A stretch of DNA of 24,415 bases from positions 1 to 24,415 of IMG/VR virus record IMGVR_UViG_3300002092_000189. One strand, written 5' to 3'. Numbering within the stretch: position 1 is the stretch's first letter; every line of letters starts with the position of its first letter. Positions 3,138-19,236 of this stretch are shown here, one piece after another. This DNA comes from a virus (taxonomy: Duplodnaviria; Caudoviricetes). The position numbers and the translations under genes were made by a program. Below the pieces are notes generated by a model. That model was not told the origin of the DNA and did no database searches. It was given only the letters and a program-made list of their open reading frames with translations.

Positions 3138-3239
3138 CTACTGTCTCCAATCTGAATCTTGTTGGTCGATTTGATACTGCTTATTGATTAGGTATGCAAC
3201 ACCAGCCATACCTATAATGAATAGACCTACGAATAACAC
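3138..3239 (-). CDS. small membrane protein (33 aa, GTG start), not in ORF track
   Basis: GAGGAG RBS; hydrophobic MLFVGLFIIGMAGVAYLI. Confidence 0.55.
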   Translation of the reverse strand: MLFVGLFIIGMAGVAYLINKQYQIDQQDSDWRQ

Positions 3240-3412
3240 ATCTCCTCCTCTCTCAGCAATTCAACTGCCAAACTTTCGGGGGATTTTTCGGGGGAACTTA
3301 CTGTGATTACACGCTTTGTGTAATGGGTATATGACATAGCCACAGTACAACCACAAGGCTTCTTAACAGTCACCTTTGTAGTTGTAGTAATGAACTCGAG
3401 GGTATTAGTCAT
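3227..3412 (-). CDS. hypothetical protein (61 aa)
   Basis: AAGGAGG/GAGG RBS. Confidence 0.65.
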   Translation of the reverse strand: MTNTLEFITTTTKVTVKKPCGCTVAMSYTHYTKRVITVSSPEKSPESLAVELLREEEMCYS

Positions 3413-3428
3413 ACCTCAACCTCCTTCT

Positions 3429-3505
3429 ACTCTCATAGAGAGTGGATAACACACAGGATTATCTTTACGCCAGCACTTGGCAACCTATATGTTATCCACA
3501 GCCTA
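3429..3505 (-). repeat. stem-loop repeat unit A (16-bp stem, 26-nt loop)
   Basis: Arms 3442-3457 and 3484-3499 pair 16/16 on the minus strand with 2 G-U; followed by ACUCUC-UAU-GAGAGU. Confidence 0.85.
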
Positions 3506-3539
3506 TGAAAACAAATAAAAAAAATCGGGGGGAACTGTT

Positions 3540-3797
3540 TTACCTACCAGAACTCTTACCATTCAATAAATCAGGAGAGTCAACAGATACATAGGTAAAA
3601 CCCTGCTTAGGCATAAGAATAAGACGATACCCAGAGCGAGCCTGACTAATGCCCTTGGATACACAATCTTTAGACATACAATAGGGATAACCAGCCTCAT
3701 ACCTCGCTTGAGGTACAGGCTGCTCACAATAGATACAACAAAGAGCGTTGTCTAAGGCTTCTAGACAAGGCTCTGAGTCACAACATTGGCATTTCAT
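3540..3797 (-). CDS. Cys-rich protein with DksA/TraR-like C4 zinc finger
   Basis: CIYCEQPVPQARYEAGYPYC...C resembles CxxCxxxIPxxRxxA..C..C; AGGAGG RBS. Confidence 0.65.
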   Translation of the reverse strand: MKCQCCDSEPCLEALDNALCCIYCEQPVPQARYEAGYPYCMSKDCVSKGISQARSGYRLILMPKQGFTYVSVDSPDLLNGKSSGR

Positions 3798-3814
3798 AAT
3801 GACCTCCTAGTTAT

Positions 3815-3932
3815 ACTCTCCAGATAGAGAGTGAGAGACACACAGGACATAGATTGATTACATAGACTTACTCATACTGTTGGCTGCAGCCTCAATGACG
3901 CAATAACCTGTGTGCCTTCCACTAACTACCTA
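3815..3932 (-). repeat. stem-loop repeat unit B (16-bp stem, 60-nt loop)
   Basis: Arms 3831-3846 and 3907-3922 pair 15/16 with 2 G-U; 5' AGGUAGUU, 3' CUCUC..GAGAG hairpin. Confidence 0.85.
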
Positions 3933-3933
3933 C

Positions 3934-4043
3934 CCTCTCTGATAGAGAGTGATAGATACATAGGCTGTTGAATATGGATGCTACATCTAATCGCAGAGCC
4001 ACATCACACTTTGGAGCACCTATGTACCTATCACAAACTACCT
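3934..4043 (-). repeat. stem-loop repeat unit C (16-bp stem, 54-nt loop)
   Basis: Arms 3949-3964 and 4019-4034 pair 16/16 with 1 G-U; same flanking motifs. Confidence 0.85.
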
Positions 4044-4049
4044 GATAAT

Positions 4050-4316
4050 AGATAAGCCACCAGCCTCCCAACCTGGTCTTACCGTTAGGTAAGCAATTCG
4101 GCTAGATAGCCAGTGGCTTATCTTGGACATAGTGGTACTAAGAATTCACTCTCCTGCTGGCATACCACAATTCCGCATCTCCAACTAGCCACCAGTCTAT
4201 TATTCCCTTACGGGTGCTGGTGCTGTGCGGGTATCGTGGCAATTACTGCCCCCGTCTATATCCACAGTAGAACTATGGACATAGATAGAGGCAGGGGACA
4301 CCGAAGTGCCCCCTGC
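4050..4316 (-). ncRNA. candidate structured RNA downstream of the 189-aa gene
   Basis: 11-bp stem 4050-4060/4113-4123; stem 4132-4168; long hairpin about 4247-4293; C(UUCG)G hairpin 4291-4316 with no U-tract. Confidence 0.65.
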
Positions 4317-4334
4317 TACTATTATAGAAACTAC

Positions 4335-4904
4335 CTACTTAGTAGATAGTTCCTTTTCACTCTCCTTAGGTGTTTCCACCTTGCCGAGATATTGTTCCTT
4401 TAACGCTTCGAAATCTGCTTGAAGCGTAAGAAACGAGGTGTCTGCCTTGGTAGTTTGTACCATAGGCACAGCACGAGCCTTCTTAACAGCCTTGTGAACT
4501 GCTTCGATGGCTTCGATAGTAGACACACCATTAAGGTTGTCTTCATCAGCCTGCTTCTTGTCTTCTTGCTCGACAAGTTTAGCGACACGCTTAAGTTCTG
4601 CTTCCATAGCAACAAGGTCTGCTAAGACCTTAATGCGGTGGTAGTTAGCGCCAAGGAACAGCGCATTAAGTGTGTCTACATCTATCTGAGGACATACAGA
4701 CTTGATGTAACCGCCGAACGCTTCACCCGCTTTAGTAGTTCCTTTCAGACCTACGGCAAGCGCGTGTGCGTGGGTAATAGCCTTGTCTGCGGAGAATACT
4801 TCCGCATACCTAGACATCCACGCAGAGGACGAGTTCATATGCTCATTAACGCAGGCGGTAAGACTAGCCTGTGATGATGCGCTTAGTTGAACTAGAGCAC
4901 TCAT
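4335..4904 (-). CDS. hypothetical helical protein (189 aa), first gene of the leftward arm
   Basis: AGAAAGG RBS; Ala/Lys/Glu-rich; no family recognised. Confidence 0.85.
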   Translation of the reverse strand: MSALVQLSASSQASLTACVNEHMNSSSAWMSRYAEVFSADKAITHAHALAVGLKGTTKAGEAFGGYIKSVCPQIDVDTLNALFLGANYHRIKVLADLVAMEAELKRVAKLVEQEDKKQADEDNLNGVSTIEAIEAVHKAVKKARAVPMVQTTKADTSFLTLQADFEALKEQYLGKVETPKESEKELSTK

Positions 4905-5005
4905 TTAGATACCTTTCTCGGGGACAGGACTTTCCTGCCACCGCCCCTACTATCTAGCCTTGCGACTAGATAGCAGGAACGAGAGCAGGAGAGTGAATTC
5001 CTTTC
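4905..5005 (-). promoter_or_regulatory. structured 5' leader of the 189-aa gene
   Basis: 14-bp GCAA-tetraloop hairpin 4946-4977; GGCAGG/CCUGUC hairpin; UCUCG/CGAGA closing stem overlapping the RBS. Confidence 0.65.
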
Positions 5006-5074
5006 CCTAGCGGACCGAGTATTACCCCTTCCGCTTCCGCGCCCCTTATGGTTACGCTTACCTATGTATTAATG

Positions 5075-5170
5075 CCCCCCACCCTTAACGCCCGCCGAGC
5101 CCCCAGATTGACGAGGCGAGACGAACTAGCAGCTCTGTGGCGGGATAGACAGTGGCCTAAAAGGTGGGGG
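5075..5170. repeat. GC-rich nested inverted repeat at the strand-divergence point
   Basis: CCCCCACC 5076-5083/GGTGGGGG 5163-5170; CCCGCC 5091-5096/GGCGGG 5139-5144; GAGC/GCTC. Confidence 0.6.
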
Positions 5171-5187: not shown

Positions 5188-5261
5188 TTGGGTTAAATAA
5201 GGCAGTGGCTTGAACTATCTATGATCATAGTGTTGCTGGAGTAAAAATTGGCGGGTAGCTG

Positions 5262-5267
5262 TACAAT
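5262..5267 (+). promoter_or_regulatory. -10 element, leaderless transcript
   Basis: TACAAT 6 nt before ATG 5274, no RBS. Confidence 0.6.
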
Positions 5268-5273
5268 CACAGC

Positions 5274-7167: not shown

Positions 7168-7240
7168 TGACCTTTAGCTCAGCCGGCAGAGCGCTCGACT
7201 GTTAATCGAGTTGTCCCTGGTTCGATCCCAGGAAGGTCAG
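7168..7240 (+). tRNA. tRNA-Asn (GTT), CCA not encoded
   Basis: Acceptor TGACCTT/AAGGTCA; anticodon arm CTCGA-CTGTTAA-TCGAG; T-loop TTCGATC. Confidence 0.97.
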
Positions 7241-16680: not shown

Positions 16681-16906
16681 ACGTAGGAGTAAAACTGTAA
16701 AAGAATTAACTAAAGTTCAACGTCGGGTAAATTCTCTTCCTACACCAGAATTACTTACATGGACCGATCAAATTATGTATTCTATAGGCCGTAATTTATC
16801 TGCCTGGCAAAAAACTCAGTATAAAGATAATTTAGCAGAGGCACGTTTAGGGGCAGAATCTTTAAACGCCATTTTAGATACTTTAAGTGAAAGACATACT
16901 CTGTGA
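16667..16906 (+). CDS. small helical protein upstream of TerL
   Basis: GTGA overlap with TerL start; start adjusted. Confidence 0.7.
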   Translation: MRIFKRRSKTVKELTKVQRRVNSLPTPELLTWTDQIMYSIGRNLSAWQKTQYKDNLAEARLGAESLNAILDTLSERHTL

Positions 16907-19236
16907 CCAATATTGAGTTTGATGAGCTAGAACCAGAAGATTTTGATGAGTTTGGTAATGTATTATCCGAAGAAGTTGAAGATGATGGTTTAGACGAACT
17001 TTCTAAAGAATTTGTAAAAGTTCTTATAGAAAAAATTATGGACTTTATGAAAGTCCTTGTTGGTCACGAACTGCATCCTTATCAGCAACCTTTAGCTCGT
17101 AGACTTATTGAATCAGTGATTATTAACGATGGTGAAGAAATTACTGCTCTTGCCTCTCGTCAGTCAGGTAAATCAGAAACTATTGCCAATACAGTAGCAA
17201 CCCTTATGATTATTCTTCCACGCCTAGCTAAGATGTATCCAGAGCTATTGGGTAAATTTGGTGACGGAATTATGGTGGGAATGTTTGCCCCAGTTCAGTC
17301 ACAGGTAGAAACCCTCTATTCTCGTACAGTATCTCGTTTAACTAGTGAATTTGCTCTAGATGTACTTGGTGATCCTGAAATTGACGATATGGTCTCTAAA
17401 ACTCCTGGAGTAGTAAGAAATATCCGCCTTAAAAATTCTGGCTCATCTCTTATGATGATGACAGCAAACCCACGAGCCAAAATTGAATCTAAGTCCTTTC
17501 ACCTCATAATTATTGATGAGTGTCAAGAGGCTGACGATTTTGTGGTTGCTAAATCAATTTCACCTATGGGCGCATACTACAACGCCACTATGGTTAAAAC
17601 AGGTACTCCGACTACACATAAAAACAACTTTTATAAAGCTATCCAATTTAATAGACGTAGGCAGACTAGCCGCAACGCAAAGCAAAACCATTTTCAATGG
17701 GATTGGAAAGATGTTGCAAAAGTAAACCCTAACTATGAAAAGTTTATTAAAAAGGAAATGCTGCGCATTAGTGAGGACTCCGATGAGTTCCAGCTGTCGT
17801 ACAACTGCCTTACTCCAGACACTAAAGTACTTACTAAAGACTTGCGTTATGTAGAAATAGGCTCAGTACAGGTAGGGGATGTTTTAGTAGGGTTTGATGA
17901 GGAGTCTCCTACAAAGGGGGCGCACAGAAAGATACGTGAAACTACGGTAACTAAGGCAGAGCGGATCCTTCGTCCTACCTACGAGATTGCGTTATCTGAT
18001 GGAACTGTAGTTAAAGCTTCGGATGGACACTTATGGCTAGTATCAACAGCGGGTCGCCGCACTGTGTGGAAGCGCACAGATGAGCTAGCTTCTACCGACC
18101 GCATCTTCAAGATATTTGATAAATGGGATCATATTGAGGACTATCGTACGGGGTACTTAGCCGCAGCTTTTGACGGCGAAGGTCATTTTTCTAGGCAAGC
18201 AATGCTTGGGTTCTCTCAACGTGATAACGTAATGCTGAAAAAGGTAAGAAAGTATTTAGACGAACTAGGGTTTAATTACTGGGAGCGCCACGAAACAGGA
18301 ACCAATAATGATGTAACTGTACTTCACATTGCTGGCGGTCGAGCAAGCATGTCTCGATTTTTAGGGCAAATTCGCCCTGAGCGGTTACTTCAAAAGGTTA
18401 ACCTTAATTCTTTTGGCTCTATCGGTCGCCATGACTTTGTGGGTCAAGACTTTGAGCACCCGTTAGTGCTATCAGTAGAGTCTGTTGGAGAGAGGGAAGT
18501 TGTTGCCCTTGAGACTACAACTCAAACCTTTATTGCAGAAGGTCTTGCCTCTCATAACTGCAAATGGCTTCTTGAACGAGGAATGTTCGTTACATCTAAT
18601 ATTATGGAAGATCTCGGGGATACTTCCCAAGAGATTGTTAAATCATGGCATAGATCCCCAGTAGTAGTTGGAATTGATCCAGCTCGTAAAATGGACTCAA
18701 CAGTTGTCACAGTAGTGTGGGTAGACTGGGACCGTCCAGATGAATATGGTTATTATGATCATAGAGTATTAAATTGGCTTGAAATGCAGGGTGATGACTG
18801 GGAAGAACAGTATTTTCAAATTCAACAGTTCCTTTCAGCATACGATGTGCTTGCTATAGGAATTGACGCCAATGGTGTTGGTGATGCAGTGGCCGGAAGA
18901 TTAAAAGTATTGATGCCTCGTGCAGAAGTTATTCCGGTTACATCTAGCCCTACTGAGCAGTCTAAACGGTGGAAACACTTACAGGCATTGATACAGCGCC
19001 AGATGGTCTCATGGCCTTCCCATGCTAAGACTCGTCGTTTACGTATTTGGAAAAAGTTTTACCAGCAAATGACGGATGCTGAAGTTCAGTACAAAGGCCC
19101 TAACTTTTTAGTAGCTGCTCCAGATGAGGTACACGCCCATGATGACTTTGTAGACTCATTGTCTTTGGCATGTTCCCTAACACAAGAACTAGTTATGCCG
19201 ACAATTGAAGTTTCTGCAAGTCCCTTTTTCACGTAG
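16903..19236 (+). CDS. terL: terminase large subunit containing an intein
   Basis: Walker A SRQSGKSE; Walker B LIIIDE; TGTP; nuclease VGIDPA and HDDFVDS. Confidence 0.95.
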   Translation: MTNIEFDELEPEDFDEFGNVLSEEVEDDGLDELSKEFVKVLIEKIMDFMKVLVGHELHPYQQPLARRLIESVIINDGEEITALASRQSGKSETIANTVATLMIILPRLAKMYPELLGKFGDGIMVGMFAPVQSQVETLYSRTVSRLTSEFALDVLGDPEIDDMVSKTPGVVRNIRLKNSGSSLMMMTANPRAKIESKSFHLIIIDECQEADDFVVAKSISPMGAYYNATMVKTGTPTTHKNNFYKAIQFNRRRQTSRNAKQNHFQWDWKDVAKVNPNYEKFIKKEMLRISEDSDEFQLSYNCLTPDTKVLTKDLRYVEIGSVQVGDVLVGFDEESPTKGAHRKIRETTVTKAERILRPTYEIALSDGTVVKASDGHLWLVSTAGRRTVWKRTDELASTDRIFKIFDKWDHIEDYRTGYLAAAFDGEGHFSRQAMLGFSQRDNVMLKKVRKYLDELGFNYWERHETGTNNDVTVLHIAGGRASMSRFLGQIRPERLLQKVNLNSFGSIGRHDFVGQDFEHPLVLSVESVGEREVVALETTTQTFIAEGLASHNCKWLLERGMFVTSNIMEDLGDTSQEIVKSWHRSPVVVGIDPARKMDSTVVTVVWVDWDRPDEYGYYDHRVLNWLEMQGDDWEEQYFQIQQFLSAYDVLAIGIDANGVGDAVAGRLKVLMPRAEVIPVTSSPTEQSKRWKHLQALIQRQMVSWPSHAKTRRLRIWKKFYQQMTDAEVQYKGPNFLVAAPDEVHAHDDFVDSLSLACSLTQELVMPTIEVSASPFFT
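17806..18558 (+). mobile_element. intein (251 aa) with a single LAGLIDADG-like domain
   Basis: N|CLTPDTKV; block B ASDGHLW; YLAAAFDGEG; FIAEGLASHN|C. Confidence 0.95.

Follow-up and report, generated by a model that had tools for sequence, protein, structure and literature searches.

A covarying leader-trailer helix, possibly a processing stem, around a gene that is predicted to occupy the terminal repeat of freshwater phages

Bacterial pre-rRNA is an RNA whose leader and trailer pair into RNase III processing stems. In the early region of phage T7, the site R1.1 is described as carrying a 4/5-nt internal loop (PMC6121014), and cleavage at T7 sites such as R1.1 as maturing and protecting T7 mRNAs (PMC8708148). 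A 14-bp pairing of the 5′-UTR with the 3′-UTR is reported for B. subtilis hbs mRNA (PMC5737220), and in hok tac/fbi of plasmid R1 a metastable local 5′ pairing is described as being replaced by pairing with the 3′ end (PMC9841398). With respect to phage ends, read coverage of BRock defines a direct terminal repeat of 221 bp (PMC7453282). Structures of this kind are already known; new features of the locus described here are that the helix is conserved around four ORF families, that the leader hairpin is interchangeable and includes a tRNA-like form, and that a predicted terminal repeat holds one gene. A literature search yielded no description of this element or of such termini, subscription papers and supplements being outside its scope.

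The window, meaning the whole stretch of DNA that was analysed, is a phage contig of 24.4 kb. It carries genes for WhiB, an HslV-like peptidase and a portal protein, and its large terminase-like gene (16903-19236) seems from the translation to contain an intein. The sequencing runs containing it were freshwater DNA runs, and no RNA runs were listed among them. The closest annotated relatives by portal protein (55-56% identity) are the Streptomyces phages pSt2308, GiJojo, BRock, Alone3 and LuckySocke, so the host is likely to be an actinobacterium. Genes lie mostly on the minus strand to the left of about position 5,100 and mostly on the plus strand to the right of it, and the minus (early) arm begins with a 189-aa ORF. 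This ORF and its flanking sequences, the unit considered here (Table 1), had no relatives in annotated phages by DNA or protein search and none in GTDB genomes. A consensus scan of the mRNA strand at the unit found no sigma-70 promoter and no terminator; hairpin D, not called by that scan, is nevertheless a possible terminator.

Related loci were collected by protein searches, which gave nine, and by three DNA-pattern scans for trailer motifs, which gave more; the distant ones were recovered via hairpin B and not via the long-range helix. Repeats of the same contig were dropped, as were L001, L009 and L042, each identical over the unit to another locus, and the remainder was 20 distinct loci including the window. 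The window and L002 have the same X, and L016 and L026 the same X and Y2, so that the independent lineages number fewer than 20. These loci represent four ORF families at the same genomic position, namely A (12 loci), B (five), C (one) and D (two), and the families are weakly alignable (hhalign E 0.0035 for A-B and 0.03-0.5 for the other three pairs tested). A 39-nt insertion in stem C was observed to be nearly identical in the window (4185-4225) and in the L004 trailer, despite only 45% identity between their proteins, which suggests module exchange.

Table 1. Features of the unit and its surroundings in the window. Long-range helix, X:Y2.
Feature	Position	Strand	Remarks
Predicted direct terminal repeat	4075..5113	.	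about 1,039 bp, edges ±2; from motif spacing, palindrome depletion and a contig end
GGCCACTG, outer copy of likely terminase-site motif	5150..5157	minus	36-37 nt outside predicted right end
G-run TAAGGGTGGGGGG, likely end/packaging motif	5075..5087	minus	conserved in 12 aligned family-A loci
Short match "a"	5056..5064	minus	pairs with 4086-4094 only in window and L002
Small 5′ hairpin P1	5041..5055	minus	GGGC(A) arm predicted to swap to UGUCC behind Y2 in full-length RNA
X, leader strand of long-range helix	4984..5000	minus	pairing extends to 5002
Leader hairpin L, GCAA loop	4940..4983	minus	two-sided change in 10/14 pairs, 12 loci
Y1 (GGCAGGA)	4933..4939	minus	pairs with inner X or Z
Z	4923..4929	minus	closes hairpin H2 with Y1 once X is taken
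Shine-Dalgarno-like GAGAAAGG	4912..4919	minus	outside both leader folds
189-aa protein	4335..4904	minus	all-helical, no known family
Trailer hairpin A, UUCG loop	4291..4316	minus	
Trailer hairpin B	4254..4288	minus	best-conserved sequence; 5′ arm used to find distant loci
Trailer stem C	4163..4245	minus	variable tip
Y2, trailer strand of long-range helix	4142..4158	minus	complement of X, covariation
Hairpin D	4050..4123	minus	holds three short matches and inner motif AGCCACTG (4118-4111)
16-bp helices	4034-4019:3964-3949, 3922-3907:3846-3831, 3499-3484:3457-3442	minus	each followed by ACTCTCTAT..GAGAG element

An earlier note on this DNA had reported that a 17-mer in the trailer is complementary to the leader, and this was confirmed at 17 of 17 positions (4142-4158 against 4984-5000). 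The match is the longest exact inverted one in the 24.4-kb window, the runner-up being 13 nt. Between 3800-4330 and 4850-5100, regions that were picked after the fact, five exact complements of at least 9 nt were counted against 0.33 expected, and among 5,000 dinucleotide shuffles none reached five complements and none gave a match above 13 nt. The hairpin at 4132-4168 that had been drawn around the 17-mer is indeed predicted, but as only one of two trailer states (P 0.37, versus 0.57 for a state with a longer stem C).

A leader-trailer helix of 15-21 bp, X:Y2, was found at the same relative places in all 20 distinct loci, using search windows anchored by hand from an unanchored helix scan and inspection. 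The unanchored best-helix scan itself placed X:Y2 on top in 18 of 20 loci (not in L002 and L017), with a score that failed to beat every shuffle in seven of the 20 (15 shuffles each). When pairs were counted in fixed columns of a MAFFT alignment, loci other than the window showed 6-13 of 17, the Y2 columns being out of register; alignment-free duplexes and per-locus registers, which lean toward pairing, were used instead. The mean duplex energy of a locus's own X and Y2 was −29.1 kcal/mol, compared with −13.4 for swapped pairs (−19.7 within the same family and −9.0 between different families), and 100,000 permutations within family A never gave a mean as strong as the observed one. Among close relatives, the own pair was outdone by a swapped pair in some rows, the row rank being above 1 for 7 of 20 loci. 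With the register chosen per locus, 127 of 132 cells in the 12 family-A loci were paired and seven of 11 columns showed two-sided change; the X:Y2 letters of families B, C and D are unrelated. Compensatory change in both 17-mers, the first check that had been proposed for this contact, is thus present in related loci. G-U pairs in the helix number 27 on the mRNA strand versus three on the opposite strand, and the mRNA-strand duplex is the more stable one in 17 of 20 loci. Full-length folds predicted X:Y2 in each of the 15 loci tested (of 20), with a mean pairing of 0.49-0.98, and in families B and C the helix contains a central internal loop. X is positioned 80-96 nt ahead of the AUG and Y2 20 nt ahead of hairpin D, leaving the pairing outside the ribosome site. 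Judged by comparative sequence evidence, the 17-mer is a genuine contact at the RNA level, joining the 3′ region to the leader, and it is the only one of the four reported complements that holds up. End-proximal genes of three cultured relatives showed no consistent leader-trailer helix (scores 29-43 at varied positions, scored with no shuffles). A second, 13-bp partner for the leader segment was seen in the L017 trailer at +10..+22, directly after the stop codon.

The other three complements exist as described, i.e., 4100-4109 with 4950-4959 (10/10), 4086-4094 with 5056-5064 (9/9) and 4073-4084 with 4856-4867 (11/12), but the idea of a set of loop-presented antisense contacts is not supported, these matches being unconserved. 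They lie mostly in stems (unpaired probability 0.12-0.38) rather than in loops; nor are the pairings free of nesting, since the 5056-5064 match encloses the 17-mer helix and at least those two are nested. Only the window and its closest relative have the short matches, one of which is disrupted in a close strain. In L002, 8 of 9 pairs of the 5056-5064 match are kept, with one compensatory change, and the AAGC that it requires is absent from 10 of 12 aligned loci; judged by eye, some loci lacking AAGC could pair GGUUGUAAC with another hairpin D tip, where a weak contact may exist. The 4950-4959 match is complete only in the window and reaches 4-8/10 in other loci; in L025 the leader arm is unchanged, yet only 5/10 are paired, and in the close strain four of the ten trailer bases differ, the link of that trailer to the leader contig being uncertain. 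The coding-region match is 11/12 in L002 as in the window and 5-8/12 in ten others.

The leader was found to have a local alternative to X:Y2. Y1 matches only the inner half (six bases) of X, and 5-6 of six X:Y1 pairs are present in 11 of 12 family-A loci; in L007, CCUGC/GCAGG has changed to CCAAC/GUUGG in X, Y1, Z and Y2 together. Nascent folds of family A have inner X locally paired in nine of nine loci (P 0.51-1.00), whereas in full-length folds this local pairing drops to at most 0.30 in eight of nine. A local partner for X appears in both minimum-energy folds of family D, with ensemble values of 0.59 and 0.00, and the alternative is weak in families B and C (0.00-0.32). At the place of hairpin L, families B and D have a 12-bp stem with a tRNA-type T-loop (L016, L026, L033, L039, L041, L035 and L036), in contrast to the plain tetraloops of family A, the window included. 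The T-loop-bearing leaders are candidate substrates of RNase P or RNase Z. The T-loop stem of L035 and L036 is split 6+6 with a short insert resembling a D-arm, and ACGCC follows. Motif-level similarity to RNase P and to group I and group II was also considered and dropped, as it was not kept across families. On the trailer side, the stem of hairpin D covaries within family A. A strong hairpin behind Y2 in the trailers of families B and D keeps CCC(C)UUC in its loop; this loop is complementary to the own gene's Shine-Dalgarno sequence in L016 and L026, with no covariation in the others.

Phage records give repeat lengths of 197 bp for GiJojo, 344 for LuckySocke, 197 for Alone3 and 221 for BRock. 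In all four of these cultured phages, TAAAGGT(A/G)GGGGG starts 27 nt inside the outer end, GGCTACTG ends 36 nt ahead of the inner boundary, and an ACTG-ending motif (exact GGCTACTG in two, GATACTG in two) ends 37 nt ahead of the outer end. In the lake loci, GGCYACTG was observed to end exactly 62 nt ahead of the G-run in 19 of 19 scored loci (L026 unscored), compared with 64 nt in the cultured phages, and an inner motif copy ends 35-36 nt ahead of the conserved, boundary-like (A/C)C(C/A)|AG or AAGC|AG in 19 of 19. The end motifs and spacing common to cultured phages with known ends thus lead to a predicted repeat at 4075-5113 that encloses the whole 189-aa gene and both UTRs; across the lake loci, predicted repeats measure 943-1,082 bp. 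The lake phages are like BRock (Borockvirus), GiJojo, LuckySocke and Alone3 in having these motifs at nearly the same spacing and head-to-head gene arms at the junction. However, the first early gene of the cultured Streptomyces myoviruses lies well outside their 197-344-bp repeat, whereas the repeat of the lake phages is predicted to hold one gene with paired UTRs. Two other readings, an RNA-primed origin at the G-run (of the kind described in PMC7157519) and a cos site, were dropped because the motif matched known genome ends. CATAGATAG is often seen ahead of GGCYACTG and is possibly a second packaging-protein site, and a conserved inverted pair, CTATGATCATAGATAG and CTATCTATGTCCATAG, flanks the gene at 5215-5238 and 4265-4288.

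Seven 4-bp (restriction-type) palindromes, chosen because they are absent from the predicted repeat stretch of the window, were counted in all 20 loci, and their densities were 3.9/kb within the predicted repeats, compared with 7.6 to the early side of them and 25.6 to the late side. The palindrome gap of the window runs from 3885 to 5131 and ends 18 nt outside the predicted end. Over the 1.9 kb from 3195 to 5131, the one at 3885 is the only tested palindrome, and further left than about 3,200 the density is back to normal. For a related strain, one contig has its end at 5113, and read depth was higher inside the predicted repeat in two runs of one study, in which strains are mixed; together these are a weak hint in the same direction. 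Since the palindromes vanish at the repeat edge, the 189-aa gene is likely the first gene injected, and we infer that the right end enters the cell first and that a promoter lies inside the repeat. Hairpin D, in which the short matches are found, extends across the repeat's predicted inner edge at 4075, which the earlier note had not mentioned and which explains part of its sequence conservation.

The 189-aa protein was found to have 70 homologues in a near-length search, none named beyond "hypothetical". A confident all-helical structure model was obtained from 77 sequences (pLDDT 87.7), although the model did not lead to a known fold: a VIA fold search of 48,161 PDB chains gave no match (best Z 5.7), Atlas matches were to unnamed clusters (0.89-0.90), and Pfam, PHROGs, PDB sequences and BFVD held no match. 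The unit proteins are soluble and 167-189 aa long, with a highest 19-residue hydropathy of 0.8-1.4 and no membrane segment. A suggested protein-plus-guide module is not borne out, as the only target within the 24.4-kb window is the RNA's own leader, the sole exact complement of at least 14 nt there, and the protein has no nuclease-like match in these searches. Its position would suit a role in host takeover or anti-defence.

Among the explanations considered, the one favoured, tentatively and with slightly less than even confidence, is that X:Y2 serves as an RNase III-type processing stem for the mRNA of a gene that, by prediction, occupies the terminal repeat and is injected first. It fits best the constant length of the helix combined with free sequence, the internal loops, the extra 16-bp helices downstream and the match of Y1 to inner X only. 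A length that is kept while the sequence turns over completely is what would be expected for a shape-reading enzyme. The RNase III substrate length usually quoted is about two helical turns, and at 15-21 bp X:Y2 is shorter. The helix is like the pre-rRNA and T7 R1.1 stems, as the cited T7 accounts describe the latter, in being a variable-sequence helix at RNA borders, in a phage early region and with an internal loop in some versions. However, the T7 sites in those accounts are local hairpins between genes, whereas X:Y2 is a two-part helix around a protein gene; unlike rRNA stems, it is shorter and has a covarying local alternative, and its cleavage is a prediction only.

If X:Y2 is a processing stem, the right end would enter first and be transcribed from the promoter within the repeat, and in the nascent leader X would be parked on Y1. 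Y2, made about 750 nt later, could invade via the free outer half of X, upon which Y1 would fall back on Z. Host RNase III would then cut the finished helix and free a one-gene message capped by hairpin L on the 5′ side and hairpins A-C on the 3′ side, and after 3′ trimming the inner X half could re-pair with Y1, sealing the 5′ end. When a product cut in mid-helix was folded, inner X was paired with Y1 at P above 0.5 in just two of the 15 loci, so this resealing step would need further trimming. The outcome would be to set the amount and lifetime of the pre-early message, with no on/off switching of translation.

The same covariation data would equally be produced by a helix that stays uncut and, as a clasp, shields the leader and the 3′ end from single-strand nucleases, the main rival explanation, which we consider somewhat unlikely. 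If the transcript ends at hairpin D, a possible terminator that lies 20 nt behind Y2, a cut would have little to separate, and an uncut helix would explain the data equally well. The pairing resembles that of hbs in size and place, in linking the two UTRs of a single mRNA outside the ribosome site and immediately ahead of a terminal hairpin, and hbs pairing restricts RNase Y cleavage in vivo (PMC5737220). Unlike hbs as presented in that report, X:Y2 occurs in phages, is longer, is conserved across four ORF families and has a nascent alternative fold. A second, short outer helix between the P1 arm and the UGUCC behind Y2, predicted with P above 0.5 in six of nine family-A folds (not the window's), would also suit a clasp. 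However, shielding leaves unexplained both the central internal loops of families B and C and the match of Y1 to only the inner half of X, and the recurrence of 16-bp helices further downstream points to an early transcript that is processed.

A wider reading, quite unlikely in our estimation, takes the whole repeat as a self-contained first-strike cassette. Its transcript would fold stepwise, from P1 and X:Y1 to X:Y2 together with Y1:Z, giving an RNA body in two parts that is not closed until the gene has been transcribed in full. This body, in two of four families a tRNA mimic, would act with or upon the helical protein as a timer or as a decoy against defences during the first minute of infection. 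It is likewise improbable that the leader and trailer form one folded domain, apart from the coding sequence, that acts as a protein-binding site or tRNA-like decoy. An ordered set of hairpins is kept around four weakly aligning ORF families, hairpin B is conserved in sequence, and the 12-bp T-loop stem of families B and D would agree with such a domain. Nevertheless, family A has plain tetraloops instead, DNA end motifs explain part of the sequence conservation, and the protein is near neutral (pI 6.0) and has no known RNA-binding fold. The element also had no ARAGORN match and no match to described Rfam families, among them tmRNA, RNase P, introns, C4 and GOLLD: an Rfam scan of the window returned only a tRNA at 7168-7240, and among eight related loci only tRNAs scored above the gathering score, although the 570-nt ORF in the middle of the element could hide a split match.

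The earlier note had compared the locus with the fold-back inhibition of hok mRNA, in which the trailer would refold the leader and turn translation of its own gene off or on. One part of this comparison stands, in that the 17-mer displaces local leader pairing. The topology is that of hok (PMC9841398), metastable local pairing being replaced by 5′/3′ pairing, and the nine of nine nascent family-A folds with inner X locally paired and the four segments that covary in L007 agree with it. The other part, control of the Shine-Dalgarno sequence, does not. The long leader hairpin, which had been said to close over the ribosome-binding site, ends just 5′ of GAGAAAGG (4919-4912). In equilibrium predictions for 15 loci, Shine-Dalgarno accessibility fell by more than 0.1 in four, rose by at least 0.09 in three and stayed within 0.05 in eight; with no consistent change, a hok-like translation switch is unsupported, although a kinetic effect would escape predictions of this type. 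Hairpin H2 forms in both states in family D. Thus, unlike hok as that source describes it, neither predicted state sequesters the Shine-Dalgarno sequence, the product is not a small membrane toxin and no antisense RNA or gene was identified, which leaves a switch of this type distinctly improbable. A role at the DNA level, through pairing that forms in single-stranded DNA while the terminal repeat is duplicated or with the arms as inversion sites, is very improbable: the helix does lie inside a predicted repeat that must be copied at packaging, and G-T pairs are tolerated in single-stranded DNA, but the arms are imperfect and differ between loci, gene orientation is identical in every locus inspected, UUCG, GNRA and T-loops are RNA motifs, and the repeats of the cultured relatives are 197-344 bp long and gene-free.

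Conserved 5′/3′-UTR helices in bacterial-type mRNAs have few tested examples, and the present element offers 20 natural variants and a short construct, making the question of whether such a helix is cut, protects or times directly testable. For an uncultured clade of lake phages, the matching end motifs predict exactly where the genome terminates and which gene is likely to be injected first; the fast-changing protein of that gene, with its unmatched fold, is a good candidate for anti-defence or host takeover in Actinobacteria.

Ahead of the downstream early genes, three 16-bp helices with variable inserts were observed on the minus strand of the window (3442-4034), and they occur in related loci as well. 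Like the ESAS of cluster K mycobacteriophages, as outlined in PMC3203893, they are 16-17-bp imperfect inverted repeats ahead of a start-associated motif, whereas their spacers are 26-60 nt in the window, compared with mostly 4-13 in ESAS, and the sequence differs. On the plus strand, GGCGGGTAGCTGTACAAT at 5243-5273, 6 nt ahead of the ATG of a 165-aa gene, resembles a leaderless promoter, and the similar AAAAATCGGGGGG is found at 3520.
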